This document shows, piece after piece, positions 9,901 to 46,263 of a stretch of DNA of 64,000 nucleotides; position 1 is the stretch's first letter, and every line of letters starts with the position of its first letter. The stretch is from a virus. Below the pieces are notes generated by a model. It had not been told where the DNA came from. It saw only the letters and a program-made list of their open reading frames with translations, and did not search any database. The position numbers and the translations under genes are program-made. The stretch lies in the IMG/VR virus record IMGVR_UViG_3300034108_000503, positions 8,272 to 72,271 of that record. One strand, 5' to 3'.

Positions 9901-12900
9901 TCTCCGAATGAGATTGACCGGACTGCTGTTCATGAATTCTGGCATGGTCTCTCCCGCTTTATTCCCGATGAGGAAATCGAGAAGATGCGCGTTGATTACG
10001 TCAAGTTCGTCAAGAAATACATCGCCAAGAATCCGTGGTTCGTTCCGTTCATTGGAAGGACGCACTTGAATGAGGATCAGTACGACGATTTCTCCAGGAT
10101 GCTGTCCAAAGAGGAGATGGACTCAATCCCGTGGAAAGAATGGGAGACTCTTGATAACGGGAAGCGGGTGCGCGGAATCAAGTGGGACAAGGAGAACTAC
10201 CGTCTCTTCCGCCTTGATGAGTGGGTGGTTGAAACCATGGCGGATCTGGTGCGCCGAAAGCAGGAAAGACCAACGACTGTCCTTGGTAAGATGGCTCGCC
10301 TGATCCGGGACTTCATTGACACGCTGAAGCAGGCTCTCGGTGATCCGTACCTGCGTGCGCTGGATGCGATGACCATTCCGGACGAGGCGTTCAATGCCGT
10401 TATCGAAAGGGATGGTCCAATTGAAAACAATCCTCCCGTGATGTACGGAGGCGTAGCCGAAGGGATGAACAATCAGTTCGTCCTCGGAATGTACGCTGGC
10501 GAGAAGTCGCTGGAGAATATGCCAGAAGAACGCAGGGCGTTCATGCAGGATTCCCTGAATTCAGCAAGAGCAATGGCTGCGGCTGGCAAGACAAGCGAGG
10601 AGATCCGTGCTGTGACCGGATGGTTCCCCGGAAAGTACGACGGCAAGATGCGGTGGGAAGTGCCGGATAATGAAGCGGAACTTAGGCTTTCTGAATACAG
10701 ACAGAAAAGAAAGGACGGAAGCTCACAGGAGGATATTGTCCGTGAATTTTTTCAGGCAAAACAGCAATCCGCAATGGAGCTTGCATTAAAAAAAGCATAC
10801 AATCTTAAAGGCAAAGACTTGATTGATTTTAGCCGTAGGTTTGATTCTGAAAAGAAAAAAGAAAATCTCGGGGTTTATTCGTTTTATCTAAATGAGGAGA
10901 ATAGAAGCCGAGGAAGAATTCCTCTCAGCTATATTCTTAAGCATGATCAATTGTTTGATCTGTACCCAGAACTTAGGTTTATGCCAGTGTCGTTTAATGC
11001 AGACGACATGGAGGCAAGTCCATTTGCCATTGGCGCATTCAACAGTAGTTTTAATGGAATTTCACTAAATCCAATATATGCTTTTGAAAATGAACAGGAT
11101 GCTTTATCGACTGTTCTACATGAAATTCAGCACGCAATTCAAAAAACGGAGGATTTCGCAAAAGGAGCATCTCCGGATTCATATTTGTTTGCTGATGTTG
11201 CATATAAGGATTGGCTTCTCAGGGCAGAGCTTGTCCAGCTTTCAGATGAAATGAACAAGCCGCTATCTGAGGCTGTTGAAATGTATAAACCATTCCCTCA
11301 AGATTACGAATCATTGCAATCAGCACTCAAGGCTTATAATTCAGATAATGATTTCAAGGATTCCGTTTCAGTAAATATTAAATACTGGAAACCAAGGGGT
11401 TCTGTAAACATGTTTGATGCGTACACAAACACCGCAGGCGAAATCGAAGCCCGTGATGTTCAGGCAAGGCAAGCATTGACACCCGAGCAGCGTGCCGCTG
11501 TTGCACCATACAGCAGCGAGAACATCGCTCCGGAAGATGCGATTGTCAGCTACTCAACCGCCAGAGGCTACACCCCGGCACCCGGCACATATGTTGCGGT
11601 CCCATCCAGCGGATGGATGGCGGCGACCGGATGGATTGCGTCGAAGTTCAGATCCAGAGGCAACCTCACTCAGGCTGGGCTTGAGGTCACGATCATGAAC
11701 GAGCAGGAGAAGAAGGCGGCAGCAAACGCGGCACGCTTCCTTGGCAATAATCTCGGCAAGCAGATTGAGAAGGTCTTCGGAAGGACCGAGAAGGACACCA
11801 AGAACTTCCGGGTGTTCACGACTGATGCCAGCGGCAAGCCCTCGTTTACCAGACCGTATGCGTCTCGGGCCGAGGCCGATGCCTTTGCTGCGAAGATGGG
11901 GTACACCGACTTCATGGTAGCCACCCCGGAGGAACTGATGAACATCGCCCTCGGGAACAGCATGCCGTCGCTGACTCCGAAGCAGGAGGAGGAGCTTGAA
12001 GCTATTCGCGAGCGCGGGATTGCTGCCGTTCAGGCGAAGACCGACAAGCTCACCGAGCAGTACCTCCGCGATAACGCTGCCCTGATTGAGAAGATTCGCA
12101 AGTCCGGCGGAACTGCTGCGGAACTCGACAAGCTCAAGGACAATCGTGAGATCTTCCAGAAGGAGATGCTCAAGTACAACGATTCCCTGAAGGCTCTCTT
12201 TGAGGAAAAGTACAAGGAAGTGAACCGCAAGTTCATGCTGGAGAACAAGGAGAAGTTCCTTTCGCTTCAGGCGAACGCCAAGATGTTCCTGCCGGATTCC
12301 ATCCTCAATGAAATCGAAGAAGCCAGGGCGGCTATCGACGGCAGGTCCAGGGAGATTGCCGGGATCGACTACCTGATGAAGGACGGCATGATGCGGATCG
12401 TGTTCTCAGCACAGGAGGGAATCTACGTCACCCGTGCATACGAGGCGTTTGAGGCGAAGAATCGTGAGGACTACGTTAACTTCCTGAACGAAGCGTACCG
12501 CTCCACGGTCGAAGGCGAGATGGTTGGCGGTAAACCGCTGAAGTACCGCGAGGTTGCGCGTGAGCGGATCACTCCGCTGGTGAACGTCCTCACCGGGAAG
12601 ATCATTGAGAAGCGGGCAAAGGACATCATTGCGGAGCAGAATGCTGACATGGTCAGCGATCTCCGTGATGAGATGAGGATCATGGATGAGAAGTCCATGT
12701 ACAAGAAGGACAGGAAGGACAAGGAGATGGACATGTACTTGTACCTGAGCGACGAGTACATTCTGGTCAGGGCAAAGAATGAAGTGAAGCGCAGGCGGGC
12801 GCAGTACCGCAGGGAGTTCATCCGAGGGATTGCCAACTACCTCGTCAGTAATCCCGCCCTTCTCAGCCTTCCTGCTGGTGCAGGGAAGAAGGAGATCCGT

Positions 12901-15645
12901 GCTGCTGCCATGAAGATGGGGCGGGATGCCTACAATGACCCTGATTCGTTTGATAAACTGATCACCGACTCCGCAATCGACCGGATCAAGCTGCTGAAGT
13001 ACAAGCTGATGCCGCTGGGTGATGCGCTCATTCAGGCTCAGAATGAATACCAGATTGCCGAGAAACTCCGGAGGGCTGGCAAGCCGGACACATCTGGAAT
13101 CAAATGGCGCACGTCCATCGGGAACAATCAGAAGCAGAGCTTCATTGAAGCGCTCAACTCGGACTTCCAGAAGAACCTGGACTTCATCCTCGGTGCGCCA
13201 GTCAGCGGATCCGGCGGCAAGGGAGTAGCCGATAGCTGGCAGAAGCTGAACGATGAGATCCTGATGCATCGCGACAACATTCCGGCGTACATGCGGAAGT
13301 TTTGGGGAGAGACTGAGTCTCCGATTCAGCGGATCACCCAGACGATCACGAAGCAGGCATCGCTGATTGCCGACTCGGTGTTCCGCGAAAGGATCGCCAG
13401 CCTCGGACTGGAAGAGGGGTGGGCCGTGAAGAAGGAGGACTACGACAGTAACCCAAACAAGTACCCAGGCTACAAGCGAATCATCGAGGGCGACGAAGGC
13501 TACGAGGACAATCCTCTGGCTGACCTCTACGTTGACGGCAACATCTACAACTCGCTGGAGATCCGCAGGTCCGGCAATCAACCATCCAACGATGCATTCA
13601 AGTTCATCGGATACTGGGTTGGTGCTGCTCTCTGGAATGCGACATCCGGTTTGATGCGTGGTGCTGTCCGGAACCTTGCGTCCTTCCCGGCATGGGGAAT
13701 GAACTCTGGTCAGAACCTTGCCAACCCGATCACCATGGCGCGTGTGATGTCCAACTTCGGTATCGCATCCGGAGCAATCGCTGAACACCTTGCCACCGTG
13801 CCAAGAGTGAAGGGTGGAACCGAAGGCGAATTTGTCGGTTTGAGGTGGAGCAAGAACCTGATCGGCACTGCGCTTCAGGCATACTCATTCACTGGTCCTG
13901 GGTCGAAGATCTTCGGAGGAATCTCCGGTATCCTCGGATCAATCTCCAATGTGACTGGCAGGGCGGAAAAGGAATCAGACCGCAAGGCGTTCCAGGATCT
14001 GTACACCAGGGCAGTCAATGTCGGTGTTGCTGACAACAACATTGAACGGAACGACATGGCAAGACTCCTCGGGTACGAGGACGAACTCACCCGCAGACCA
14101 ATCACTGGAGGCAAACTTGCCCGCTTCCTGCCATCGTGGATGCGCCCTGATGACATGCAGGGTGCATTGGATTACCTCGTACAGACAGCCAAGTCCACGG
14201 CAGGGAACCGTACCGAGTACTACTCATCGATGGACTCGCTGACCAAGATCACGTTCTGGCTCAGTGAGATGGAGGAGCAGGCGAAGATCCACGCCAAGGA
14301 CAAGGCTCAGTTCAATGAGTGGCGCGGAGAGAACGGCATGTTCCAGAACCTTCCGAAGGAGCTTCAGATCAAGGCCGCGAACAACATCAATGACACCATC
14401 CAGTCTGACTCTCGGGTTCTGGAAGGCGTGAACCAGTTCCGTAAAGCCGGATGGGGTAAGATCCTCTCTCCGTTCCTTGCGTCGAAGACCGAATTCATCC
14501 GCACTGCCCAGAATTCCTACCGGATTGCGCTGGATGAAATGAAGAACGGTGTGAACAAGAAGGAGAAAGCCAGGGGCGCAAGGCGTCTGGTTGCTGCGCT
14601 GACTGGTCACATCGGATACTCTGCTGTCGCATCGTTCCTTGCGGTCACCGTCATGCGGATGGTTGGTGGCGGGGACGATGAGGAGAAGGAAGGCGTGACG
14701 CTCGACGGTTCGCAGATTGATTCGCTCCGGAAACTGCTGCCAGAGTGGGCGCAGAATAAGGTGCTGGCTGGACGAGCATACGCCAATGGCGAGATCGACT
14801 GGGCTGACGTTTCCTTCCAGCTTCCGTTTGGATGGATGAACGAAATCTTCATCTCCGGACAGAAGGCAATCGACAAGAGCAACGCGGAAGACATCCTCGC
14901 TGCCGAGGTCACGATGCAGATCGTGTCTGACTTCATCGGCAACTTTGCCTCCAGGCAGATTGCAGTTGAGGCTGCATCCAATGCTCTTTCTGGCTTCGAC
15001 CGGATCCGGAACAAGACGATCTGGGAAAAGGACGACAGTGTCTACGTCAAGATCGCTAAGGGGATCAAGTACTACTTGAATTCCGCAGGGTATCCCGGTG
15101 ACGTTCGTGATGCCATCAAGATGTACAAGGCTGCATACGGGATCGAGGAGAATGGCAGCAAGTACAAGATGGATGCAGTCCTCCTGTCCATGCTCACTGG
15201 TCAGAGCATCCGCACCCAGAAGATCGACGAGATGTACCTCTCTCAGATGCGGCAAGCCCAGGATGATCTGCGTATCGTGAACCGATCCCTCTACCAGTCG
15301 GCTCTCCGGGATGCCAACAACGTGGAGCCTGAAGATGTCGCAGCCGACACGAAACTCGCCATGACCCGCCACGCCGAAACCATGCGTGAACTCGGGCAGA
15401 TGTTCTCCTCGGCAACAAGCCTGCTGGAGACTGGCGGCATGGCTCCAATGGATGCCAGAAAGAAGATCCTTGCGATCATGCGAAGCGAGAAGGTCAAACT
15501 CAGCCAGCGTGATGAGCGGGCAATCGCCAACCAGTACATCCCGCCATGGCGAGGATCAGATGTCACCGAGAGGGAAATCCGCAGGCTCGACCGCAAGCAT
15601 AACGACGGTCGCTTTGAGGCTTACCTTGACGCGATCCGCAGGTAA
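922..15645 (+). CDS. Giant 4907-aa polyvalent virion/ejection protein (DarB-like architecture): PSBD-like domain, SF2 helicase, zincin peptidases, ART-like domain, LPD23
   Basis: Walker A SSEPGSGKT (~6151-6177), DEGH (~6370), SATP, ATMAKGGTGLSLHD and QRSARYG helicase motifs; HELVH (7996), HEFWH (9931), HEIQH (11119); DAEYMSAVEGGD...WHGT...VIPLSQRFNPQSPDIRFS ART-associated module; EEIRAVTGWFPGKYDGKMRWEVPD (LPD23-like); Gly/Ala-rich hydrophobic N-terminal helices. Confidence 0.85.
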   Translation: MESIDGTGLPSQPQTQPQAPKKWSEIEQESLIYSLPPEQRMPIFDQWVKDTQNYQLQAGGFDNPESFQKFKLKELQTRRRLSSEIGADPTPEEVNADYDNYVNIISSEQQRLAAKAPDEKAYKDVIDGNRGAAFVGGQIVFNPKVTKDPTAYRKALAESDAPDDIKLIYAGKRDEEDKKSVVTRRNELASRVITPKVADKVVSAIQEGNEILGFDVGTPQSPAIVKDKAGTWSVVDPDYVNWDESIVGGIATKVLPAANAQYKPMPELNEFQKKYGLTDEEIQTDYLEALKRSAPTSISRWVTNADSLEDYVPVLNSKVRVLDPDVKPKVFVPNADLAFDKEAYDAVVDKAKAPDEAKALAKETRTQIAESIAAPTFDLLLRNRDDFAPYAKDAKDPQAKVAAVSRYYKDKKDQAWYNDIGEFFSQGIGGIGTGLTRLVNLANVVPAMFGDVEAAERAAAVQKAENEKAQAAEMVGSRMGAPTTIKLTRDVAAVLPDLAAQIVISMATGGLGASAAAGSLAARTGVSYTAARGAISAAMANAERGAVRAAVSRIPSIAAGSVDDLADAAIATAKQMSSKNPLKGGLGLQQAVSAATAGMSSMGGTFPEVYSQLRNEGMAPAKALDAARNAAAISGAITGLITYGFSAAGAGGAEDIGTMSQRKAGDFTVRDLVAAGLPDVLRSEYGKQAVIKTARGILGKAGSEGLEEGLDQFIGGISQYLTNPSAEAQDKKVSDIIQESLYAGALGFIVGGGAAVGGQIRQTAGGLTAAQIEAEMAGLTGAPPAPPAPATPPPPVAPAAAPPAAGSTPPAPAAPGAAAVPPSPAPPPAGAATVVSPTGTTTVSTAAPSTVVSAQPPGATRLATRLASQFGVDITTVTPSGANNTVTPNDIRNAARQKQLAEAEQNGVAPPEELPLPPPPPNPLLSEAVGMQIQYEGYEGTLIDDEGRPALQTPDGTVIDIPATFLADEAVNALGITVTGDAAQDRAEVLRMYGETEGEALQIIFGGITTDTDSVVDMAELGVSLLQRKGRKTIRVQNTPEFARMARGITDEQILLAEEQITQAIETTRTQTGIPDDLKQKITAKLEGDLNILSLFIESRDSWQNGLVPRDIGVPSETRQATAASQAPAQQTNPAAVNAASVAAAVSQVPGASITGAALQQAANTAPPVPVEVPPAPAQQPVEAAPAATPAAPTVVEEPAAEAKAVTRDATKPEQMTKDELSAFRKSEAIKTAKDDLSKAKDGTDNPYAFGFKSKAALVRAREDALQKATSEDQDPDVFGTVIEAANQKRPIFAGLIDSLSDVDRTISPGPMGEPGGVVRSARKQLIDSIEEKGYVKEGDLYVFKGESETASVKATEEPAVEAPVEATVETKPTEAPVAPVEAATEPVVEPAAPKEEAPATAPKAEAPVEEPKAAVDIEFVEGDAAEDADIVFMVYSANNYYTLWFKQKSKDKTARPVYVKNLPSNEKDAFSEAKQYASKIASTGKIPQAFVGKIDVYKFNTVGLIDKVVEREKLSTPVSRNLGDSEIRYGEYAGKTINQLLSGEEKEFDYVFSNLIKTNFFSSYIASLPEFEIFKQKQKEKAKQVVTSESKAALKKVGLNVSINEESGEIQISGKTFAWREKLSSVKGKFNYEDKFYSVTPEGYRQLAEEIGGIKVSDGGYERGIPAYVTDERYRRLRREREQDPDRSGLPSAPGQYVSVGTQDLLRKGEESGMPSFVIEEQIEDVALIKRAYTEGKPLFLLSSEPGSGKTYVLGAAIRELIAAGAKKINYITLNENLIEQIKADLAEYGIQDVSFYTYDSIKKKDVGESDVLIFDEGHAIKNIGKGTGRAKKGENLIRRSKFTLVSSATPFENPLEVEYLDAAGVFDDKNEFPEGFDDFVLAFGGYVFSVTDSRGNTVSKLEFARSKGSNEDLMQAREFFRKRGMLTTRRTKLDSSMVDVQQKKVPADKYYVDIFNAINKAKEDKQLTVYARQWFVNFQKRLLEASKIDSAIGEARNAIDEGRYPIIFVETKQAKDFDIDKLVKDEFEYQRTVARAKMMDDSPPPRSAFDLPPEGVVDVFEEAVKSFKIKNISIPSINDKIISAFGKETVAFFTGDFTDLQAKKNLSEWRKGTKKLLVATMAKGGTGLSLHDKSGDHPTTQINVNLPWSATQFTQVAQRSARYGLRSKAKMMWLFTDEIDFDRKLANLVGGRIQSMSALVGGKESKIGETLEEWNIADTTDSERKDVKPTEKPAETADGSPDPNATDDLSVSRSTGLPYTPGEARKAGVTRIASDLGLVNGNQESVFSALEKISKSGNRRHRKVAKDLLKVLQGTDVTVQMISVDPSKNGWFDPATGTVYLNLDGPHETGIVETLLHELVHAGTERAISNPVTPAQKALVDSLQKQMDSARKAAADLIKSKLGKDVDLTNWRGLVNAARMLNDYDFFDVVYGLSSLSEFATHATTSKAFQKFLSGVGKDGKPLGLFDRFVRVIAKYFTGQTDIATDVYNDIISLIGSADKGSVRMPNINREKFGGLVGKPASESRGVTPQMDAEYMSAVEGGDTKTAQRLVDQAAKAAGYNGDLWHGTKSEKIGELSFDESNEGFHIGTKKAAAERLKYINKTLPEMRQSKDNLIKVSIKGNYLTVPDVGYGYLVDWIGAAQDALPVEGQEIDDPFDVTQEQFTEWLMKNGYSGLRYVNEIENAGSTSYAVFDFGSVKSTEPIIKDDAGNVIPLSQRFNPQSPDIRFSESRGIIDQQLALYAPDLKVFVEPGVKDPIAYNGIGLVINEEAVSEMDEDDVRLQTQRAALASRFAADNPLAADVIQKPDLLFPALMGDSVRAGVARSLMDASRFAADNGMQPLAMDLGTKADAFGATGIMLSEARGVPPDGVRRFDLVDAVRAAKAGEASTPFVALNEAINANTELTRRIRAESERRKAPYARGKGAILQQIITAGNSGRLPKEAIKPITDFVNSVSEKALEDTRISLSVKPKSSTFDFTESLVTLALNGLGSSPNEIDRTAVHEFWHGLSRFIPDEEIEKMRVDYVKFVKKYIAKNPWFVPFIGRTHLNEDQYDDFSRMLSKEEMDSIPWKEWETLDNGKRVRGIKWDKENYRLFRLDEWVVETMADLVRRKQERPTTVLGKMARLIRDFIDTLKQALGDPYLRALDAMTIPDEAFNAVIERDGPIENNPPVMYGGVAEGMNNQFVLGMYAGEKSLENMPEERRAFMQDSLNSARAMAAAGKTSEEIRAVTGWFPGKYDGKMRWEVPDNEAELRLSEYRQKRKDGSSQEDIVREFFQAKQQSAMELALKKAYNLKGKDLIDFSRRFDSEKKKENLGVYSFYLNEENRSRGRIPLSYILKHDQLFDLYPELRFMPVSFNADDMEASPFAIGAFNSSFNGISLNPIYAFENEQDALSTVLHEIQHAIQKTEDFAKGASPDSYLFADVAYKDWLLRAELVQLSDEMNKPLSEAVEMYKPFPQDYESLQSALKAYNSDNDFKDSVSVNIKYWKPRGSVNMFDAYTNTAGEIEARDVQARQALTPEQRAAVAPYSSENIAPEDAIVSYSTARGYTPAPGTYVAVPSSGWMAATGWIASKFRSRGNLTQAGLEVTIMNEQEKKAAANAARFLGNNLGKQIEKVFGRTEKDTKNFRVFTTDASGKPSFTRPYASRAEADAFAAKMGYTDFMVATPEELMNIALGNSMPSLTPKQEEELEAIRERGIAAVQAKTDKLTEQYLRDNAALIEKIRKSGGTAAELDKLKDNREIFQKEMLKYNDSLKALFEEKYKEVNRKFMLENKEKFLSLQANAKMFLPDSILNEIEEARAAIDGRSREIAGIDYLMKDGMMRIVFSAQEGIYVTRAYEAFEAKNREDYVNFLNEAYRSTVEGEMVGGKPLKYREVARERITPLVNVLTGKIIEKRAKDIIAEQNADMVSDLRDEMRIMDEKSMYKKDRKDKEMDMYLYLSDEYILVRAKNEVKRRRAQYRREFIRGIANYLVSNPALLSLPAGAGKKEIRAAAMKMGRDAYNDPDSFDKLITDSAIDRIKLLKYKLMPLGDALIQAQNEYQIAEKLRRAGKPDTSGIKWRTSIGNNQKQSFIEALNSDFQKNLDFILGAPVSGSGGKGVADSWQKLNDEILMHRDNIPAYMRKFWGETESPIQRITQTITKQASLIADSVFRERIASLGLEEGWAVKKEDYDSNPNKYPGYKRIIEGDEGYEDNPLADLYVDGNIYNSLEIRRSGNQPSNDAFKFIGYWVGAALWNATSGLMRGAVRNLASFPAWGMNSGQNLANPITMARVMSNFGIASGAIAEHLATVPRVKGGTEGEFVGLRWSKNLIGTALQAYSFTGPGSKIFGGISGILGSISNVTGRAEKESDRKAFQDLYTRAVNVGVADNNIERNDMARLLGYEDELTRRPITGGKLARFLPSWMRPDDMQGALDYLVQTAKSTAGNRTEYYSSMDSLTKITFWLSEMEEQAKIHAKDKAQFNEWRGENGMFQNLPKELQIKAANNINDTIQSDSRVLEGVNQFRKAGWGKILSPFLASKTEFIRTAQNSYRIALDEMKNGVNKKEKARGARRLVAALTGHIGYSAVASFLAVTVMRMVGGGDDEEKEGVTLDGSQIDSLRKLLPEWAQNKVLAGRAYANGEIDWADVSFQLPFGWMNEIFISGQKAIDKSNAEDILAAEVTMQIVSDFIGNFASRQIAVEAASNALSGFDRIRNKTIWEKDDSVYVKIAKGIKYYLNSAGYPGDVRDAIKMYKAAYGIEENGSKYKMDAVLLSMLTGQSIRTQKIDEMYLSQMRQAQDDLRIVNRSLYQSALRDANNVEPEDVAADTKLAMTRHAETMRELGQMFSSATSLLETGGMAPMDARKKILAIMRSEKVKLSQRDERAIANQYIPPWRGSDVTEREIRRLDRKHNDGRFEAYLDAIRR
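8491..9122 (+). repeat. Exact 14-bp direct repeat TCCGAATCCAGAGG (8491-8504, 9109-9122) flanking the ART-like domain
   Basis: Read directly; both copies encode SESRG in frame. Confidence 0.85.
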
Positions 15646-16324: not shown

Positions 16325-16597
16325 TCACGGTTTACTTCTGTCCGACCATTCTTCTGACTTCTTCTTTCTCTTTTTCTTCTTACGCTTCTTCGCTGGTCCT
16401 GTCGAGAGATTTCTTTTCACTCTCGCACAGGCGCACCAGGGAACCAGTTTCACTGATTTGTCATCCAGCATTACCAGTCTGACCTCATGAGGTTCAGCAG
16501 GATACTGGACTTTGTCGGTGACTCCGAGCCTCCCGGATTCGCCATCAACAGCGACAAGGACATGAACCACGACCCCTGTGTCCGGTCGCCTGTCCAT
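16325..16597 (-). CDS. Hypothetical protein with Lys-rich C-terminus (start uncertain)
   Basis: Last ORF of the minus-strand operon; KKRKKKKRKKK tail. Confidence 0.45.
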   Translation of the reverse strand: MDRRPDTGVVVHVLVAVDGESGRLGVTDKVQYPAEPHEVRLVMLDDKSVKLVPWCACARVKRNLSTGPAKKRKKKKRKKKSEEWSDRSKP

Positions 16598-16616
16598 GCA
16601 CCTTGCCAGTTCTTCT

Positions 16617-16889
16617 TTACGTCTCACGGGATGCAGCTTCCCCGGCGAGCGCAAAATACGCTGCACCGTCCTCGTAGTTGTCCGCCTTGAATTGACCCTG
16701 GCGGGACCGGACCATCTTCAGTATGCCCATGAACAACCATCCGTCTTCGTGGGTGAGGGAGTGTCCTGTCAGCGTATTGAACATATCAACAGTCTTTTCA
16801 ATGGACCGCTCGCCATCTGGAGCGTCGTACTGTTCCGCCCGGTCCTTCATGTGACCAACGGCATTCTCAAGAATCTCAATTGCATTCAT
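16617..16889 (-). CDS. DUF6378-like phage protein
   Basis: DRAEQY...GWLFMGILKMVRSRQG...DNYEDGAAYFAL pattern. Confidence 0.7.
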   Translation of the reverse strand: MNAIEILENAVGHMKDRAEQYDAPDGERSIEKTVDMFNTLTGHSLTHEDGWLFMGILKMVRSRQGQFKADNYEDGAAYFALAGEAASRET

Positions 16890-16897
16890 AGTTTTGA

Positions 16898-17290
16898 TCA
16901 GAATTCGATTTCATCTTCATCGCCACGGCCCGGTGACCAGTCCCCGGAAGGCTGCGGACCACGGCTCTTTTGCGGAAGCGGTTTCTGGTGGCGCTGCTTC
17001 TGCTTCGGCGCACCAGTGTCGATGCGCCACGCTGTCAGATTGTTGTAGACCACTCCGGTATTTGCGTTCCGATGTCCGCGAACATTGAAGTGAACCGTGA
17101 CTTCGTCCCCGGCTTCAAGGTTCTCAAGCTGCGACACACGGTCGCCAATCAACTCAAACCGAAGGGTCTGGTCGTACTTTCCGTCATTGAAGTCGATGAC
17201 GAAGTCCTGCTTGGTGAGCTTTCCGAATTGCTTCTCAGGGTGAATCTCAGCGATCTTGCCGCTGACTTGGAATCCATTTGATGTAGCCAT
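16898..17290 (-). CDS. DUF3127-family OB-fold protein (SSB-like)
   Basis: KQDFVI...YDQTLRFEL...GDEVTVHFNVRG...YNNLTAWRI and an acidic tail DEDEIEF; start placed at MATSN. Confidence 0.75.
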   Translation of the reverse strand: MATSNGFQVSGKIAEIHPEKQFGKLTKQDFVIDFNDGKYDQTLRFELIGDRVSQLENLEAGDEVTVHFNVRGHRNANTGVVYNNLTAWRIDTGAPKQKQRHQKPLPQKSRGPQPSGDWSPGRGDEDEIEF

Positions 17291-17318
17291 GTTGTTTTTT
17301 ATGTGTGATCTTTTTTGG

Positions 17319-17528
17319 TTACGCGCACCACCTGCAAAATTCAATATCAAATGCTTTGAGTACGGCTTTGGCTTTTGCTGCCAATGATTTATCGGTGACG
17401 GCACAGAGATGTTTCACGAAATCCTTAAGCAATTCGTCCTCAAGAAAATGAGCCATCTCATCATCCACTTTACTTGATGCATATTGTTTGATTTCTTTGA
17501 CGCGATTTCTGATTTCTTCAATGGTCAT
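17319..17528 (-). CDS. Hypothetical protein (AT-rich)
   Basis: ORF packed in the operon; DDEMAHFLED motif. Confidence 0.6.
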   Translation of the reverse strand: MTIEEIRNRVKEIKQYASSKVDDEMAHFLEDELLKDFVKHLCAVTDKSLAAKAKAVLKAFDIEFCRWCA

Positions 17529-17532
17529 ATTT

Positions 17533-17760
17533 TTATTTCAGGTGATCTTTGACGGTAGTAACCGCTCCATGCAGAGCAAGTTCAATATCCTTGAATGGTC
17601 TCTGTAGTTTTCTGTTTTCGTAGAACATGACGAAGAAGTCTTCGATGACTTCCATGTCCGAGGTGAATTCATCAATCACTTCTTTGTCCCACTGCTTATG
17701 CTTGCATGTGGGATCATTAAGGATTTTCTCGGCAATGGCGATGAATTCGTGAACTTCCAT
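17533..17760 (-). CDS. Hypothetical protein
   Basis: ORF packed in the operon. Confidence 0.55.
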   Translation of the reverse strand: MEVHEFIAIAEKILNDPTCKHKQWDKEVIDEFTSDMEVIEDFFVMFYENRKLQRPFKDIELALHGAVTTVKDHLK

Positions 17761-17766
17761 GGTATG

Positions 17767-17886
17767 TTACTGGCAGCTTTCGCAGTCTGGGTTGTCCATT
17801 GAGCAGGCAGGTCCAAGGGTGATGTCCCCGAAGTCGTCTTCGGGATCTGACTCAGGCTGATTATCGGTCTGTTGGTTTGGTTCCAT
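17767..17886 (-). CDS. 39-aa acidic peptide resembling the ribonucleotide reductase alpha C-terminal tail
   Basis: MEPNQQTDNQPESDPEDDFGDITLGPACSMDNPDCESCQ*; fills the gap between neighbouring genes. Confidence 0.6.
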   Translation of the reverse strand: MEPNQQTDNQPESDPEDDFGDITLGPACSMDNPDCESCQ

Positions 17887-18076
17887 CTTCTTTGTGGGTG
17901 ATAACGAAAATCGGTTCGCCGTTCTCATCGGCCCGGTACTCGGCAATGCCATTGCGAATCAGGACGGCCCTGTAGTGCTTCAGTTGGTCGTTCTGGGGGC
18001 TTGTGGCTGTGCAGAGAAAACCACCAACAAAGCCAATACCAGAGAAAAACAATCCAATAAGAAACTTATCATTCAT
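17861..18076 (-). CDS. Small membrane-anchored hypothetical protein
   Basis: N-terminal hydrophobic helix FLIGLFFSGIGFVGGFLC; ATGA overlap with the upstream gene. Confidence 0.6.
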   Translation of the reverse strand: MNDKFLIGLFFSGIGFVGGFLCTATSPQNDQLKHYRAVLIRNGIAEYRADENGEPIFVITHKEDGTKPTDR

Positions 18077-18312
18077 GGTCTTGATTTCTGTCCTTTCACT
18101 CGCTTCCCGCCCCACTGAGGCTGGCACTTGTACAGCTTCCGCATTTTACGGATCGCGTGATAGCCCCACTCAAGCTCCCCGAACTCAGGATCCTTGACCA
18201 TCTCAGCGATCACTTCGTTGTGGGTCTTCTCGCCGCAGAGCAGCACGAACTTCTTCCGAAGATCCTCCCTGTGCTTGAGGTGATGACCGAGTGTGTCCTT
18301 GGTGAGTTCCAT
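18073..18312 (-). CDS. Hypothetical protein
   Basis: ORF with A/C-rich leader; coupled to the next gene. Confidence 0.55.
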   Translation of the reverse strand: MELTKDTLGHHLKHREDLRKKFVLLCGEKTHNEVIAEMVKDPEFGELEWGYHAIRKMRKLYKCQPQWGGKRVKGQKSRP

Positions 18313-18352
18313 TGTTGCTGGTGGTTATGATTGATGTGGATTCAACGCAACA

Positions 18353-18366
18353 TACGCAATCATGTA
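18353..18366. promoter_or_regulatory. Conserved box TACGCAA-N4-GTA (TACGCAATCATGTA)
   Basis: One of six exact copies found in the window; intergenic. Confidence 0.65.
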
Positions 18367-18379
18367 CAAAGCGCCATGA

Positions 18380-19729
18380 CTATTTGCGCCATGCCTTCTG
18401 GGGTTTCTCCTGCTTCCTCCTTGGCGGATCGTCGTCATCCTCGAAACGCTGGAGCGCACCATTCCGGCGGACTGCAACGCTGCGGTTGGATGCACCGAAG
18501 CGGTTCTTGAGGATCTTTATCCTCCCGGTATCGGCAGTCTCCTCGTTTCCGTCCTCGCTTTCGTGGACATCCATGTCGATCCGAAGGAACACCTGCGGAG
18601 CATCAAGGATTGCCCTCGCGTCACGGATCATGCCGTCGTCATTCAGTTGGACCGGAGCGATGAGCGTGCATCCCAGTTCCTTCCGCAACCTCTCTGCCGT
18701 CTCGGAGATTGTCTTGAGCATCTGATCCGCCCGCTCGCCGGAACGCTGGGCAACAGGCACAAGCTGAAGGTAGTCGATCACAATGAAGTCCAAGGGCTTC
18801 TTTCGGTGGAGGTTCCTGGCGTGGGAAGCAACGCCTTCCAGCGAGATGTACGGTGATTCGGTGTAGTGCAGATCCCATCTTCCGAGGGACTCAATGGCTT
18901 TCTGGATTCTGGTGAAGTCACCCTGTTCCCGCAGCGGGGTGCGGCCCATCACCTTGTCGAGAGGGATACCCGACTCCCGTGCCAGATCCCGCATCACGAT
19001 CTGGATTGCTGACATCTCGTAGCCAACCACGAACCCGCGCCTTCCAGCGCACGATAGTCTGCCAGCCATCTGCATCGCCAGCAGAGTCTTCCCGTGTCCC
19101 TGCTTTCCTCCGATCAGGATGTACTCCCGACGGATCCCTCCAGCCAGCAATTCGTCCAGTCCTTTGATCCCGGTCGCGATGGCAGGATCAACGTCAGTCT
19201 CCACTCCCTGCTCGATGATGTCGATGTAGCGAAAGAGGACATCCTTGATTGGAATCAGGTTCGCGCTCCTGCTCTGGACGGTGGCGGTATCCAGTTCCCG
19301 GATCATTACTCCAACCTTTTCTCTCCAGTCATCCGGCCCATCGTAGGCGACAGCCTCCAGCCGGGACGCTATCTTTGCAACGCTACGGCGTCTGGATGCG
19401 CTCCTGACGGCTTCGCAGTATGATCGTACCGCAGACGGCGCAGACGCTGCTGTGGCGATTTCCGAGATGGTTCCCGCGCCCCCCACGGAATCCAGCTTCT
19501 GAGCGTCAATCAGGTGGGCCGTAAGCGAGACAGCATCCACCGGGTTTCCGTCAGCGTGGCGGGAGATGATCAGGTCGAACAGGTAGGCGCAGTGTCCGGT
19601 GACGAAGTCCGAGGACTTGATGATCTCAATCGCCTGGTCGATGGCGTACTCCGGTGCCTGCATCAGGCAGGAGATGACTGCTCTGTCCATTTCCTCCGAC
19701 CCCGGAGGCTTCTTCAGTTCATGGTTCAT
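18380..19729 (-). CDS. dnaB: Replicative DnaB-like helicase
   Basis: N-terminal PPGSEEMDRAVISCLM...VDAVSL domain; TGIKGLDELLAGG; Walker A GGKQGHGKT; YEMS; VIDYLQL; KNRFG. Confidence 0.9.
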   Translation of the reverse strand: MNHELKKPPGSEEMDRAVISCLMQAPEYAIDQAIEIIKSSDFVTGHCAYLFDLIISRHADGNPVDAVSLTAHLIDAQKLDSVGGAGTISEIATAASAPSAVRSYCEAVRSASRRRSVAKIASRLEAVAYDGPDDWREKVGVMIRELDTATVQSRSANLIPIKDVLFRYIDIIEQGVETDVDPAIATGIKGLDELLAGGIRREYILIGGKQGHGKTLLAMQMAGRLSCAGRRGFVVGYEMSAIQIVMRDLARESGIPLDKVMGRTPLREQGDFTRIQKAIESLGRWDLHYTESPYISLEGVASHARNLHRKKPLDFIVIDYLQLVPVAQRSGERADQMLKTISETAERLRKELGCTLIAPVQLNDDGMIRDARAILDAPQVFLRIDMDVHESEDGNEETADTGRIKILKNRFGASNRSVAVRRNGALQRFEDDDDPPRRKQEKPQKAWRK

Positions 19730-19741
19730 TTATTGATGTTG

Positions 19742-20668
19742 TCAGAATGGTGCCTTGATCCGCTGACGCTTCTCGTTGATCTCCACCCTCATCGTGGCAG
19801 CGACAACCTCCGCGTAGTTGAGGCAGAAGAACGACGGGTCGTGAGCTTTCGTCAAGCACCCTGGGGCATACGGTTTCGTGGATGCCTGCATCGCATCGTG
19901 GTACGCATCAAGAAATTCATCGGCAGTCCCGTTCCACCCGGCAAGGAAACGCTGGAGGACTTTGGCGAACTTTGGCGAGAACGGAAATGGTTTGCCTGTG
20001 ACGTGGGTGTACGGCTGGGCGATCTGGGAAGTGATCTCATGGTGCCGGGGATCCTTGGTCTCGACCGGAGCAGTTGCTGGTCTTGCTGGTTCCTTCCGTG
20101 GAACGGAAACCTTCGCCACCACCTCGGTATGTCCGTCAGGACCGAAGAGGAAATCTCCTTCCTCGGACTCCTTCCTCTTGTAGTTGTCTTTACTATTATC
20201 CTTATCCTTATCCTTACCTTTACTATTACTATTACTATTACGTTGAAGGACTCCTTCAGGGACTCCTTCAAGGACTCCTTCAAGGACTCCTTCAAGGACT
20301 CCTTCAAGGACTCCTTCAAGGACTCCTTTGGATTGCACCTTGGATTTCCCACGAAGAAGACCACCCTTCTTTCCGCCTTCCCGTTTAGCCTTAACGACTT
20401 GCTCGCTCTCAATCGGGTAGCGCCACACAATCAGGTCTCCATTCTCCCCCCAGGACCAGAGTGGGCATTGCTGGTCAACCTCGGATCGAGTCAGACCAAG
20501 AGCCAGCCACTGCCGATCAGTCCAAGAACGTGCGTTACTGATAACTCCACCGTTCTCGTGGGTGCAGCAGTACTTCAAAAGATATAGCCAGGTCGCCCGT
20601 TGGACGGGTTCCGCGCCGATCATTTCCGGCTCTTCAAGCTGCGTGATCTTGATGTTGATCCAATTCAT
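19742..20668 (-). CDS. Phage replication initiator (lambda O-like arrangement) with internal repeats
   Basis: Directly upstream of dnaB; central (GVLE)n and NSNSNS/KDKDKD low-complexity tract typical of initiators that carry their origin. Confidence 0.7.
   Translation of the reverse strand: MNWINIKITQLEEPEMIGAEPVQRATWLYLLKYCCTHENGGVISNARSWTDRQWLALGLTRSEVDQQCPLWSWGENGDLIVWRYPIESEQVVKAKREGGKKGGLLRGKSKVQSKGVLEGVLEGVLEGVLEGVLEGVPEGVLQRNSNSNSKGKDKDKDNSKDNYKRKESEEGDFLFGPDGHTEVVAKVSVPRKEPARPATAPVETKDPRHHEITSQIAQPYTHVTGKPFPFSPKFAKVLQRFLAGWNGTADEFLDAYHDAMQASTKPYAPGCLTKAHDPSFFCLNYAEVVAATMRVEINEKRQRIKAPF
20191..20329. repeat. Putative origin: seven tandem 12-bp units (AAGGACTCCTTC, 20246-20329) next to AT-rich hexamer repeats (20191-20240)
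   Basis: Repeats read directly; each consensus unit contains the palindrome AAGGA-C-TCCTT. Confidence 0.75.
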
Positions 20669-20866
20669 GAAAGTAAAAAACAGTAATCATTGAGTCACTG
20701 TACACGGCAACCATCAACTGCAAAGACTAAGAGAATTTCCCCTGCACCCTCTCCGGGGTGATTTTTCGACACTCCTGCCTTTCTATTTGGTGAAGGAGAA
20801 CCCGGCCCACACAACAGGTGCGGGAGCGAGTGACGCAGGGGTGATCTATTCCGCAGTCTGATCGGC

Positions 20867-21703
20867 TCAGACCCCGCACATTCCTGTGCATTCGTTTCCG
20901 AACAGCGAAAGCTGCCCGCGGTCTTCCTCACTGGAGAAATCCACGGTTTCGATGGGCTGGCAGGATTTGTGAAGAAATGGAATGCCTCGCATTGTGGTTG
21001 TCTGCTGCTTGGCTGCTTGGAATTGCTTTTCAAACGCCACGGCTGCCGCAAACGCTTCTGGCTCTTCGGTTTTAAGCCTGCGCCATTCGGCGTCGGAATG
21101 GTACGGGCAAAACACGCACGACGACCGCGGTGGCTTTGGGTATCCATTCCGCTCCATCCATGCGATGCAATCTCCGCGACGCATGCCAAGGTCAACGAGC
21201 GGCCATTTTGATTCCGTCCACGGGTCGCGGGATGGCTTCATTCTGTGGACTTCATCCAGCGAGATCCCAATCCACTGAACAACGCCCACGGTTTTCTGAC
21301 CTCGTTTGATTCCGCCGAGTTCCCGAGCCTTTCGCAGAATTGGCGCAATCTTGAAGTCGTAGGTACAGGCGCGGGATGGCATCATGCCAATCTGGCCGCC
21401 CTGCCTGACGTGGCATGGGATGTTCCCGCCTGATATGATGTTGCCCGTTTTGCCAGTGTAAACCTTTGTCAGCTTATCGCTCAACCTGCCAGCCGTCACC
21501 CGGTGAATCGGGAACGGATGCGGGCTGCGCTGGATCTCTGCCTCTAGCCAGTCAAGCCAGCGGTAAACGGATGCAGGCTCATCTTGTGTGTCAGCGAAAA
21601 TTGCGCCATCCAAGTGTGGATATCCGGGAACTTCACCCCGTGCTGCCATGATAGCAAGAGTGCTGGATTGAACTCCAGCACCAAGAGAAAGAATATGTTT
21701 CAT
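20867..21703 (-). CDS. PAPS-reductase-like / adenine nucleotide alpha-hydrolase family protein
   Basis: LSLGAGVQSS PP-loop, IFADT, WIGISLDE, PPRSSCVFCPY. Confidence 0.75.
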   Translation of the reverse strand: MKHILSLGAGVQSSTLAIMAARGEVPGYPHLDGAIFADTQDEPASVYRWLDWLEAEIQRSPHPFPIHRVTAGRLSDKLTKVYTGKTGNIISGGNIPCHVRQGGQIGMMPSRACTYDFKIAPILRKARELGGIKRGQKTVGVVQWIGISLDEVHRMKPSRDPWTESKWPLVDLGMRRGDCIAWMERNGYPKPPRSSCVFCPYHSDAEWRRLKTEEPEAFAAAVAFEKQFQAAKQQTTTMRGIPFLHKSCQPIETVDFSSEEDRGQLSLFGNECTGMCGV

Positions 21704-21750
21704 TGAATTTATTTGCGTGATGACGTATACGCAACCCACGTTTGTCTGTT

Positions 21751-22050
21751 TTACGCCGCAACCTCTTTCTTCCTGGCAGGCTTGTGCTGGCAAGTCTCCG
21801 GAGCGAACTTCTTGCGGGCCATGCTGACCGTTGTCGGCTTGATACCAAGCTGGGCGGCAATGTCAATGGTCCGCAGGGACCAATCAACAGTACTCCAGAT
21901 GTGCTTCCGTGGAGGCTTCGGACCTCCGCTCTTTTTCCATCGCTGGTAGGCACCCATGTACTGCATGCCAGTTTCCTTGGCGGCAGTGGCGATGCTGGTC
22001 TTGGTCCAGTCGATTGTGGCGAAGTACTCGTCTCGTTCTTTCTTTGTCAT
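21751..22050 (-). CDS. Small protein with duplicated DW/HTH-like motif
   Basis: TIDWTKTSIATAAKETG and TVDWSLRTIDIAAQLGIKPTTVSMAR. Confidence 0.55.
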   Translation of the reverse strand: MTKKERDEYFATIDWTKTSIATAAKETGMQYMGAYQRWKKSGGPKPPRKHIWSTVDWSLRTIDIAAQLGIKPTTVSMARKKFAPETCQHKPARKKEVAA

Positions 22051-43873: not shown

Positions 43874-44356
43874 TTAGGAAGTGAAGTGACGGGACCAGAA
43901 TGCGTCATCCGTCCTCATGATGATTTCACGGCTCGGGAACTTGTCTTCAATCTCAGGAAAGAACGCATCCGTGTAATTTACGTCGTAATTCAGCATCGTC
44001 AGGTACAGTTCGTCGAGATTTGATTCAAGCAGCGTCCAGATCTCCACACCTCCGATCACCCAGATGCTGCCTGGGTATTCCGGCTTATCAATGGCAGTGA
44101 GCGCAGAAAGCTCATCCATGTCTCTCGCAATCTCAATCCCGTCGCACGGCTTCATCGTTCTGCTCATCACGATGTTCCTCCTGCCTTTCAGAACGGACGG
44201 TAGAGATTCCCAGGTCTTCCGGCCCATGATGACGGTTCCCCCCATGGTCATCCTCCTGAAGAACCTGAGGTCTTCCGGTAGATACCAAGGGATGGTTCCG
44301 TTCAGTCCGACTGCCCGGTTCTGCGCCATGGCGGCGATTCCAATCCACTTCTTCAT
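43874..44356 (-). CDS. folA: Dihydrofolate reductase
   Basis: IAAMAQNRAVG.NGTIPWYLPEDLRFFR, VIMGRKTWES, GRRNIVMS, VIGG, DAFFP. Confidence 0.95.
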   Translation of the reverse strand: MKKWIGIAAMAQNRAVGLNGTIPWYLPEDLRFFRRMTMGGTVIMGRKTWESLPSVLKGRRNIVMSRTMKPCDGIEIARDMDELSALTAIDKPEYPGSIWVIGGVEIWTLLESNLDELYLTMLNYDVNYTDAFFPEIEDKFPSREIIMRTDDAFWSRHFTS

Positions 44357-45165
44357 ACGGCTACCTTTCCTTTGATTGCTGGATGCGGATCGTACCCGAC
44401 AAGGTCGAAGTCCTCAAACTCAAAGCTGTCGATGTCCCAGTGGCGACCGTGGATCGCAAGAATCGGGGGAGCCTTGATTGGTCGCGAGATCTGCTCCCTG
44501 ACTTGGTCGTAGTGGTTGCTGTAGATGTGGGCATCTCCCACGCTGATCGTAAGGATCCCCGGTGTCAGTCCGGTGATGTGAGCCACCATGTGCGTCAGCA
44601 GGGCGTAGCTGGCAATGTTGAACGGCATCCCGAGGAACATGTCGGCAGACCGCTGCGTCAGCATGCAGTCCAGACGATTGCCTGAGCGCACCGAGAACTG
44701 GTAGAGCATGTGGCATGGAGGCAGTGCCATCTTTGGGATATCGACTGGATTCCATGCGCTCACAATGATCCGGCGGGAATACCGATCCTGCTCAATGAGG
44801 CGGATTGCTTCCTTCAACTGGTCGATCCCCTCCTTGCCCCAGTTCCTCCACTGCTTGCCGTACACCGGGCCGAGTTCTCCATCGGTCGATGCCCACTCGT
44901 CCCATATGGAGACTCCGTGCTTCTGTAGATCCACGATGTTGGTGCTTCCGGAGATGAACCACAGGAGTTCGTGGACCACGGACTTCATGTGGACTTTCTT
45001 CGTGGTGAGGAGCGGGAATCCTTTGGAAAGATCAAACTTCATCATTTCCCCAAAGATGCTGGACGTTCCCGTGCCAGTGCGGTCATATCGTTTTTCTCCG
45101 TAATTCAGGATATTACTGATTGCGTTGATGTACTCTTCTTCGTTCGATGTATCAAGTCTGTTCAT
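44353..45165 (-). CDS. thyA: Thymidylate synthase
   Basis: DRTGTGT, FPLLTTKK, ELLWF, GPVYGKQWR, ALPPCH, QRSADMFLGMPFNIASY, DAHIYSNH. Confidence 0.97.
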   Translation of the reverse strand: MNRLDTSNEEEYINAISNILNYGEKRYDRTGTGTSSIFGEMMKFDLSKGFPLLTTKKVHMKSVVHELLWFISGSTNIVDLQKHGVSIWDEWASTDGELGPVYGKQWRNWGKEGIDQLKEAIRLIEQDRYSRRIIVSAWNPVDIPKMALPPCHMLYQFSVRSGNRLDCMLTQRSADMFLGMPFNIASYALLTHMVAHITGLTPGILTISVGDAHIYSNHYDQVREQISRPIKAPPILAIHGRHWDIDSFEFEDFDLVGYDPHPAIKGKVAV

Positions 45166-45503: not shown

Positions 45504-45706
45504 GCGATTCGCGTGAGGTGTGCGTACTTGGTATTCCTGCCGCCATTGTAGACCTGATTGCAGCGCATGCAGCGTTCACGCTTCTGCCACTCCTTCCAGC
45601 TACAGTGCTTCGTGGGCCATATCTTCTCCCGGCAGTCAATGCAGTGATGGATCGCGTGATCCCTCCAGCCGACTGGCGGTTTCTCCAGTGATCGGTCGAT
45701 CTTCAT
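45500..45706 (-). CDS. Small Zn-finger protein
   Basis: CIDC...CMRC; resembles the 48324-48515 protein. Confidence 0.5.
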   Translation of the reverse strand: MKIDRSLEKPPVGWRDHAIHHCIDCREKIWPTKHCSWKEWQKRERCMRCNQVYNGGRNTKYAHLTRIA

Positions 45707-46263
45707 TCGGCTCCAGTGGCTGAGTTCTTCTTCCAGTCCCGCTTCGACACGATGGACTCCCAGGTCTCAATGATCGTGGCAGTCAGATCAACGCCAACCT
45801 TGTTCGCTACCCGGTAGACCAGCGCCATGAAGTCGGTGATCTGATACCGGACGGCATCCACGAAGACCGCATCCTCAATGCTCATCAGGTACGCAACCTG
45901 AAGGTGCTTTACCCCGCAGGTCAGCCGGATCAGTTCCGTCTCGGTCGAGTGTTCGCTGACGTAGCTGTTCTCAGCACGCAGAAGGACATCCACGAACCGG
46001 ACCCCTGCCTTCGTGCAGAAGTGCATAAGGTAGATGGACACGTCAGCCAGAGCATCGCGCATGTTCGCCTGATGTTCCTCCGGGGTGCCACGGATTCCCT
46101 GCTTCCGCTTCAGGAATGAGTGGGAGAACTCACCGATCTCCTCAATCACTCCGAGGACCGGGTCGATCTGGTTCTCGGCAGTATTCGCGCCGAAGTTCTG
46201 GAAAGCCCACTCCTTGTGCTGGTCCTGGACTTCGTTGATTTTCGCAATGGTTTCCGATGTCAT
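45703..46263 (-). CDS. MazG-like nucleotide pyrophosphohydrolase
   Basis: EWAFQNF...LGVIEEIGE...DALADVSIYL...VSKRDW. Confidence 0.75.
   Translation of the reverse strand: MTSETIAKINEVQDQHKEWAFQNFGANTAENQIDPVLGVIEEIGEFSHSFLKRKQGIRGTPEEHQANMRDALADVSIYLMHFCTKAGVRFVDVLLRAENSYVSEHSTETELIRLTCGVKHLQVAYLMSIEDAVFVDAVRYQITDFMALVYRVANKVGVDLTATIIETWESIVSKRDWKKNSATGAE

Follow-up and report, generated by a model that had tools for sequence, protein, structure and literature searches.

The phage studied here encodes a 39-residue peptide that reproduces, as a separate gene product, the C-terminal redox tail of NrdA, the large (alpha) subunit of class Ia ribonucleotide reductase (RNR). The finding thus concerns a known element, the redox tail of RNR, which here occurs detached from the enzyme and on viral DNA. 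Judged by its profile matches, the peptide is one member of a large family of stand-alone tail modules and not a one-off. It very probably engages the host RNR/redoxin relay in some way, whether as an electron shuttle, as an inhibitor or through a redoxin. The reading preferred here, to which we give slightly less than an even chance, is that it could serve as a trans-acting redox tail on the host RNR/thioredoxin relay, that is, as a diffusible redox arm. The stretch of 64,000 nucleotides analysed is referred to as the window, and its features are listed in Table 1.

Table 1. Features of the window; positions count from its first letter.
Feature	Position	Strand	Remarks
Single 4,907-codon ORF	922-15645	(+)	
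DUF3127 / single-strand DNA-binding-like protein	16898..17404	(-)	downstream of the peptide gene, same module; family matches
Downstream gene, 75 aa	17533..17760	(-)	no family
Free-standing NrdA-tail peptide gene	17767..17886	(-)	39 codons + TAA stop, TAA within coordinates
Core NrdA-like motif C-S-x-D-N-P-D-C-E-x-C-Q-stop	17767..17805	(-)	single window match
Tail module, codons 16-39 (EDDFGDITLGPACSMDNPDCESCQ)	17770..17841	(-)	acidic-aromatic motif, LG-x-AC, terminal C-x6-C-E-x-C-Q
Upstream gene, ~71 aa	17861..18075	(-)	hydrophobic N-terminus, membrane-like; ATG at 18073-18075; no Pfam family
DnaB-like replicative helicase	18380..19729	(-)	upstream; Pfam DnaB_C 2.2e-31; phrog_19 2.1e-58
308-residue protein	19742-20668	(-)	no family; just upstream of DnaB
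PAPS-reductase-like protein	20867-21793	(-)	phrog_424 E 4e-47; no Pfam match at E <= 0.1
folA	43874-44356	(-)	Pfam DHFR_1 6.1e-37
thyA	44353-45165	(-)	Pfam Thymidylat_synt 7.6e-113
MazG-like gene without tail module	45703-46263	(-)	phrog_715 E 8.7e-4; Pfam MazG-like

The 39-aa ORF with an NrdA-like ending that the earlier note had described is present at its position, on the minus strand. Its translation, MEPNQQTDNQPESDPEDDFGDITLGPACSMDNPDCESCQ, is a soluble, disordered 39-residue peptide with an acidic, proline-rich first half and the ending D-D-F-G-D-I-T-L-G-P-A-C-S-M-D-N-P-D-C-E-S-C-Q. The back-translated tail motif matched the window once and none of 100 dinucleotide-preserving shuffles, with two mismatches allowed. 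The frame extends back in the window to an ATG at 17952 (61 aa); in the related viral contigs L004, L009 and L020 it is open for 44 codons only before the stop, which leaves the start giving 39 codons as the one that is conserved. A 39-aa variant of the peptide (P0001) is present in a public protein collection and was the only protein returned by a word-based homologue search in near-length mode, the longer-protein mode giving no candidates. Since NrdAs with the same tail exist and none was returned, the word-based index is blind to the tail motif. A protein atlas yielded unnamed clusters of 39-43 aa only, with recognition below the mark.

Passages of PMC9669993 and PMC11903788 describe how the NrdA tail, having received electrons from thioredoxin or glutaredoxin, moves into the active site and re-reduces the turnover disulfide, and the former also states that the RNR alpha tail is disordered and that most class I enzymes end in C-x-x-C. 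A flexible tail with a terminal C-x-x-C pair, a feature of class I RNR alpha subunits, is present in the peptide, as its alignments with 5im3_A and NF005544 show. The sole match in the PDB was 5im3_A (963 aa, ribonucleoside-diphosphate reductase; E 0.18), with which the last 15 residues of the peptide align end to end, 13/15 being identical; we take this chain to be Pseudomonas aeruginosa NrdA. In NCBIfam, NF005544 (RNR alpha) alone matched, weakly (E 0.054), at positions 946-965 of 965. Furthermore, tblastn with seven NrdA proteins against the window gave matches at 17770-17907 only (best E 1.9e-5 over 38 residues and 8e-5 over 33 residues), all remaining NrdA matches having E >= 0.27. These three sets of alignments bear out the view that the gene encodes, on its own, a copy of the C-terminal tail of class Ia NrdA, corresponding to about the last 24-38 residues of that subunit. 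The ten-stranded barrel domain with the catalytic cysteines (PF02867) was not matched anywhere in the 72-kb record (control positive in 12/14 genomes), and the peptide, which is without the barrel and copies the tail part only, is therefore not classed as an NrdA. An origin of the gene as a decayed nrdA remnant was considered and rejected, as the window matches NrdA over its last 33-38 residues only; the confinement of the tblastn matches to 17770-17907 means that no decayed nrdA surrounds the ORF.

The peptide and the tail of two-ATP-cone class Ia NrdAs (5im3 chain A, NF005544) have the terminal A-C-S-x-D-N-P-D-C-E-x-C-Q in common. Acinetobacter and Amycolatopsis NrdA tails additionally carry, like the peptide, an acidic-aromatic motif upstream of the cysteines, which in Acinetobacter-type tails is E-D-D-F about 10 residues before the first cysteine, as in the peptide; such a motif occurs in 9/119 sampled NrdA tails. 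Unlike NrdA, the peptide is without a catalytic body and is encoded alone by an RNR-less phage. It also has L-G-x-A-C before its first cysteine. None of the 119 bacterial NrdA tails sampled has this motif, or an L-G directly ahead of the cysteine; two NrdA clusters (P0018, P0062) do have the motif. The D-D-F motif may alternatively mimic the tail of NrdB, in which case the peptide would be a double mimic, and 7/10 phage NrdB-like ORFs adjoining NrdAs with this tail (recognised by eye) do end in D-D-F. However, the same motif occurs in the nine NrdA tails mentioned, and the stand-alone forms track NrdA tails; we read D-D-F as part of the NrdA tail. A complex prediction for the peptide with the core of Acinetobacter NrdA (residues 235-890, own alignments) gave a score of 0.02.

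In bacterial genomes, the tail motif is almost always the end of an NrdA, and the stand-alone form is rare. A scan for a looser motif, with one genome per species, yielded at least 120 loci; among the matches listed, 114 lie in ORFs with the TTYY barrel end and three are cut by the locus end. The titles of 80 of the matches listed are mostly of Pseudomonadota, with some actinomycetes and single representatives of Planctomycetota, Acidobacteria and other phyla. Also among the matches listed, L047, L059 and L065 are frames of 153-464 codons without the barrel-end motif, which may represent nrdA genes of MAGs that carry a frameshift, or else additional stand-alone forms. In a profile search of 703 bacterial genomes (300 of the Pseudomonas class, 201 of the Amycolatopsis class, 201 of the phylum of a Planctomycetota MAG and one Acinetobacter), 61 matched; the matching frames are either as long as an NrdA or truncated where a contig ends, with one stand-alone gene as the exception. 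This exception is a 41-residue gene (L282:1498-1623) in a genome titled Amycolatopsis orientalis (G013, the genome of locus L100), whose NrdA retains its own, nearly identical tail; its neighbours, by eye, look like genes for a small heat-shock protein and a membrane protein.

The peptide gene, on whose conservation the earlier note had made its proposal depend, is retained with its 39 codons in the related viral contigs L004, L009, L020 and L018. Three haplotypes (window; L004/L009/L020; L018) differ by six synonymous and three non-synonymous changes, of which three synonymous and no non-synonymous ones fall in codons 24-39, and the stop codon varies from TAA to TGA; these counts are small, as the close relatives differ little. 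Evidence for selection on the module is stronger in the wider family than in the codon counts among close relatives. Contigs from four DNA runs contained the L018-like haplotype only and no new variants; the variants present in one metagenome run are those of L018. Near-identical DNA is present in lake-water metagenome runs: in addition to four runs flagged as possible sources, six runs of six further studies contained at least half of the sampled words; no RNA run was found among the 24 listed runs with matching DNA. In L004 (5733-6053), and likewise in L009 and L020, a 106-residue Cys-rich gene with no Pfam family starts on the stop of the peptide gene in an ATGA overlap. This gene is absent from the window between 17760 and 17767, having been lost there, and the N-terminal half of its product is homologous to the N-terminal half of a 77-residue tail fusion in L012 and L017.

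A search for the motif as a stand-alone gene, as suggested at the outset, did recover stand-alone forms, and these belong to the family that the profile search described below retrieved. Among 2.9 million viral contigs, the motif C-S-x-D-N-P-D-C-E-x-C-Q-stop was found at 22 loci, and at each of them it closes an ORF in the reading frame; 16 of these are RNR large subunits with the barrel-end K-T-T-Y-Y-L-R upstream and six are short ORFs. A second motif, L-G-x-A-C followed by C-E-x-C-Q-stop, was likewise found at 22 viral loci, all of them short ORFs and none an NrdA. As a side observation, the viral contig L002 (4404-6885) contains a tail-ending NrdA frame of 422 codons with a separate 403-codon frame before it, and its nrdA is possibly split or interrupted. 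Sixteen stand-alone proteins have ten invariant columns (D21, L24, G25, A27, C28, D31, C35, E36, C38 and Q39), all of which are present in the peptide, itself the sequence that seeded the profile. We define the family by a C-terminal acidic-hydrophobic motif, L-G-x-A-C and a C-x6-C-[ED]-x-C ending no more than 2 residues from the C-terminus, in a protein lacking an RNR barrel; the peptide shows all of these features.

The profile (A3), which covers the last 39 residues, was searched against 1.84 billion cluster representatives at E <= 0.001 and retrieved 81 protein clusters with less than 50% mutual identity. In 78 of them the proteins are 29-216 residues long and have unrelated N-terminal parts, the module forming the extreme C-terminus. 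By length, 37 clusters have up to 60 residues, 27 have 61-120 and 14 have 121-220; the three longer ones comprise two true NrdAs with L-G before the cysteine (P0018 and P0062) and one unrelated internal match. The ending C-x6-C-[ED]-x-C is present in 79/81 clusters and L-G in 70/81. Three stand-alone variants (P0044, P0045 and P0071) have 18-20 of their last 24 residues in common with the Amycolatopsis NrdA tail. Family members lie on viral contigs in every case with context examined. Neither Pfam nor NCBIfam contains a model for the family, PHROGs covers one branch with function unknown, and neither such peptides nor LUZ24 gp29 were described in any paper that a literature search, not extending to supplementary files, brought up.

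The L-G-x-A-C module loci show at least five unrelated N-terminal contexts. In addition to the 39-residue type, these include a 77-residue protein whose N-terminal part is Cys-rich (L012 and L017, in a phage with a syntenic DnaB and replication protein), the 53-54-residue Bruynoghevirus proteins of PHROG 9555 (PaP4 gp35 and LUZ24 gp29, encoded between primase/helicase and DNA polymerase genes), a 55-residue type (L035 and L038) and a type of about 120 residues with a conserved N-terminal domain of no known family. An alignment-based AlphaFold2 model of a 122-residue tail-bearing protein had a mean pLDDT of 51. PHROG 9555, a group of 53-residue hypothetical Bruynoghevirus proteins, has the same C-terminal module and likewise belongs to the replication module of an RNR-less phage. 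The peptide matches it at positions 29-53 of 53 only (E 0.0017), whereas the true member L037 matches over 1-53 (E 1.6e-36), and by this alignment the relationship of the peptide to PHROG 9555 is through the module only. The N-terminal 28 residues of PHROG 9555 are unrelated, its tail is more diverged (C-G/D-L-D-P-E-V-C) and its host is P. aeruginosa.

Because the module ends many unrelated small proteins, its possible roles widen to that of a docking or redox tag. As such it would tether cargo to host RNR or to reductants within a phage-run dNTP-making assembly, the bare 39-residue form being a regulator or a leftover of fusion. The five or more N-terminal contexts are consistent with this, as are three clusters of MazG-like pyrophosphatases with a C-terminal module (P0022, P0056 and P0075; phrog_715 E 1.7e-24 to 7.4e-19) and the Cys-rich domain that is fused to the module in L012 and encoded in L004 as the gene adjoining the 39-aa peptide. 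Further clusters have DUF551-like or zinc-ribbon-like N-terminal parts, as recognised by eye and with one weak DUF551 match. However, the 37 clusters of up to 60 residues have no room for cargo, four relatives retain the 39-codon form unchanged in length and the fusions may be neutral read-throughs of neighbouring small genes; we consider a tag improbable as the function of the peptide.

The three cysteines could also bind metal, and the peptide might be a metal-binding or cysteine-dependent peptide that is NrdA-like by descent only, or a non-functional fragment of a lost nrdA. We regard an unrelated role of this kind as very improbable: the window contains no other NrdA-like sequence, the module is under purifying selection and conserved across the 81 clusters, and the motif is otherwise confined to NrdA ends.

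The absence of an RNR gene from the window, as initially reported, holds for the whole 72,271-bp viral record, which CheckV rates as 100% complete and in which a PF02867 search found no RNR large subunit. NrdB, NrdD, thioredoxin and glutaredoxin were not found in the 72-kb phage either, and any partner of the peptide must thus be a host protein. The same pattern extends to other carriers of the stand-alone module: no RNR large subunit was found in 11 such viral records, seven of which are at least 93% complete, and no NrdB, NrdD, thioredoxin or glutaredoxin in five module-bearing viral records, the phage of the window among them. The genes for nucleotide metabolism noted at the start (thyA, folA and a MazG-like gene) were all recovered, the MazG-like match being weak (26.6 bits against a Pfam cut-off of 27). 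Together, folA and thyA (43874..45165) are the phage's own dTMP-synthesis genes, located 26 kb from the peptide gene.

The last 26 bases of the upstream gene overlap the start of the peptide gene in a different frame, and the downstream gene starts 7 bases after the peptide stop; with this overlap and gap, the three genes form one tightly packed block on the minus strand. The DnaB-like helicase nearby places the peptide gene in a replication module. No promoter-like sites were found in 16500-20800, and no terminator-like sites on the minus strand of that region. The best cultured relatives of the DnaB are at most 28% identical. Thirteen loci with DnaB relatives were found, eight of them not already seen with the tail module, and none of these eight, which are mostly fragments, has the module or an RNR. 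The 308-residue protein encoded just upstream of DnaB is syntenic in L012, and its sequence includes six G-V-L-E repeats in a row as well as a low-complexity N-S/K-D stretch; the DNA repeats beneath might be origin iterons. The 4,907-codon ORF shows, by eye, Ala/Pro-rich linkers, a helicase-like ATPase motif and zinc-protease-like H-E-x-x-H motifs, and resembles by eye the giant polyvalent proteins carried by some phages.

For the preferred role as a redox arm, we propose the following sequence of steps. The phage, which has no RNR or redoxin of its own, would express the peptide from its replication module, and host thioredoxin or glutaredoxin would reduce it. The reduced peptide would then act in trans on host NrdA as an extra diffusible redox arm, leading to more dNTP for phage DNA synthesis, while the acidic-aromatic and LG residues before the cysteines would supply docking in place of NrdA's covalent tether. 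The mimicry of the NrdA C-termini, of 5im3_A and of NF005544 points in this direction, as do the close tracking of the Amycolatopsis NrdA tail by P0044, P0045 and P0071 and the fact that the motif in bacteria is the NrdA end. Selection on codons 24-39 and across the 81 clusters, and the dependence on the host implied by 0/11 module-bearing records with an RNR large subunit, are further arguments for it. Against a redox arm, bacterial NrdAs of this type carry their tail tethered, so that it is not obvious what a free copy would add; fusions of the module with MazG-like enzymes and with other domains would suit a tag no less well than a shuttle. Furthermore, LG-x-AC is present in 16/16 stand-alone proteins and 70/81 clusters and in 0/119 NrdA tails, which places the module under a constraint of its own, perhaps set by a different partner.

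A natural precedent for action in trans, which likewise favours the redox arm, was found in metagenomes. The motif D-D-L-Q-C-E-S-C-Q-stop occurs at at least 120 metagenome loci, and none of the matches listed is fused to an NrdA. Among the matches listed, 50 ORFs with this ending lie 30-250 nt after an NrdA ORF with a cysteine-less post-barrel tail, 44 are without an upstream NrdA and 26 have too little upstream sequence. One such operon (L215:3055-6622) consists, according to Pfam, of nrdA (823 aa; ATP-cone, all-alpha and barrel domains), a 24-codon tail ORF and nrdB. Operons of this type mean that natural RNRs with the recharging tail as a separate micro-protein exist, and the free tail peptides adjoining cysteine-less nrdA genes make trans action of the peptide plausible. 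The detached tails are free peptides of 21-30 residues with an acidic-hydrophobic motif and C-E-S-C-Q-stop, presumably acting in trans on NrdA as is proposed for the window peptide. They differ from it in lying inside the RNR operon of an organism with a cysteine-less NrdA, in having two cysteines instead of three and in being non-phage in the 50 operon cases. Neither nrdA nor nrdB is present in the record of the window, where the neighbours of the peptide are a small membrane-like protein and a 75-aa ORF, and with no such gene nearby the peptide is not an operon-encoded detached tail. A literature search found no paper on such micro-ORFs between nrdA and nrdB.

Within the parts of PMC9669993 and the accompanying preprint on which this comparison draws, the nearest published case is the split class II RNR NrdJa/NrdJb, whose cysteine-bearing C-terminal part is made as a separate polypeptide. 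NrdJb is described there as folded, with domains of the IscU-like and zinc-finger types, and the two genes lie side by side in one genome; the pair belongs to a different RNR class and has no sequence likeness to the window tail.

Host RNR might also be inhibited. A passage of PMC11903788 describes the alpha tail and nucleotide as competing for the same pocket, and the re-reduction step as varying between lineages; because of this competition, a free tail could inhibit as easily as help. As an inhibitor or decoy, the peptide would fill the NrdA active-site pocket or docking surface and block turnover or re-reduction. This could stop host DNA synthesis or rebalance the pools while the phage lives on salvage and its own thyA and folA. 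LG-x-AC is an invariant feature of the stand-alone module and is absent from the 119 sampled NrdA tails, and the presence of thyA, folA and the MazG-like gene indicates that the phage reshapes nucleotide pools, both of which are compatible with inhibition. Short, disordered yeast RNR regulators of the Sml1 type are proposed to target the large subunit at the place where that subunit's C-terminal tail works, and offer a possible working analogy; they are eukaryotic and cellular, and are not copies of the tail. We nevertheless consider inhibition unlikely, since an RNR-less phage would cut its own de novo dNTP supply, the detached tails beside cysteine-less NrdAs must be functional, and the three cysteines are kept in 79/81 clusters, although pure binding would not obviously need them.

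The peptide might instead be aimed at thioredoxin or glutaredoxin, titrating or capturing reductant, diverting reducing power or recruiting a redoxin to phage replication proteins. The tail is by definition a redoxin substrate (PMC9669993, PMC5704485), the phages encode no redoxin, and the genes lie in replication modules, beside DnaB here and between the parts of the DNA polymerase in LUZ24 and PaP4. Yet nothing ties these polymerases to thioredoxin, and a decoy need not copy NrdA so exactly, down to lineage-specific residues before the cysteines, and we hold a redoxin target to be distinctly unlikely.

RNR sets dNTP supply and is a drug target. Re-reduction is described in part of PMC11903788 as the least understood half of the RNR cycle and as varying between organisms. 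A broader and more tentative reading, which we consider rather unlikely as a whole, is that phages turned the RNR alpha tail into a portable module. In its bare form this would be a diffusible recharging arm for the host reductase; fused to MazG-like pyrophosphatases, zinc-ribbon-like or other small domains, it would be a plug into the host RNR/thioredoxin relay, and RNR-less phages would thereby run a dNTP-making assembly around the host enzyme. If this were true, the module and the micro-ORFs found next to cysteine-less nrdA genes would jointly imply that re-reduction, one half of the class I RNR cycle, can be provided in trans and is a common control point used by viruses. Widespread natural free tail peptides, at 29-60 residues short enough to be synthesised, would be ready-made probes for the purified enzyme and could show how the tail docks, whether re-reduction is rate-limiting in vivo and whether an external agent can enhance or block it. 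In phage biology, they would add a type of auxiliary gene that is a copied piece of a host enzyme and not an enzyme, and conserved hypothetical genes such as LUZ24 gp29 would gain a first clue to their function.
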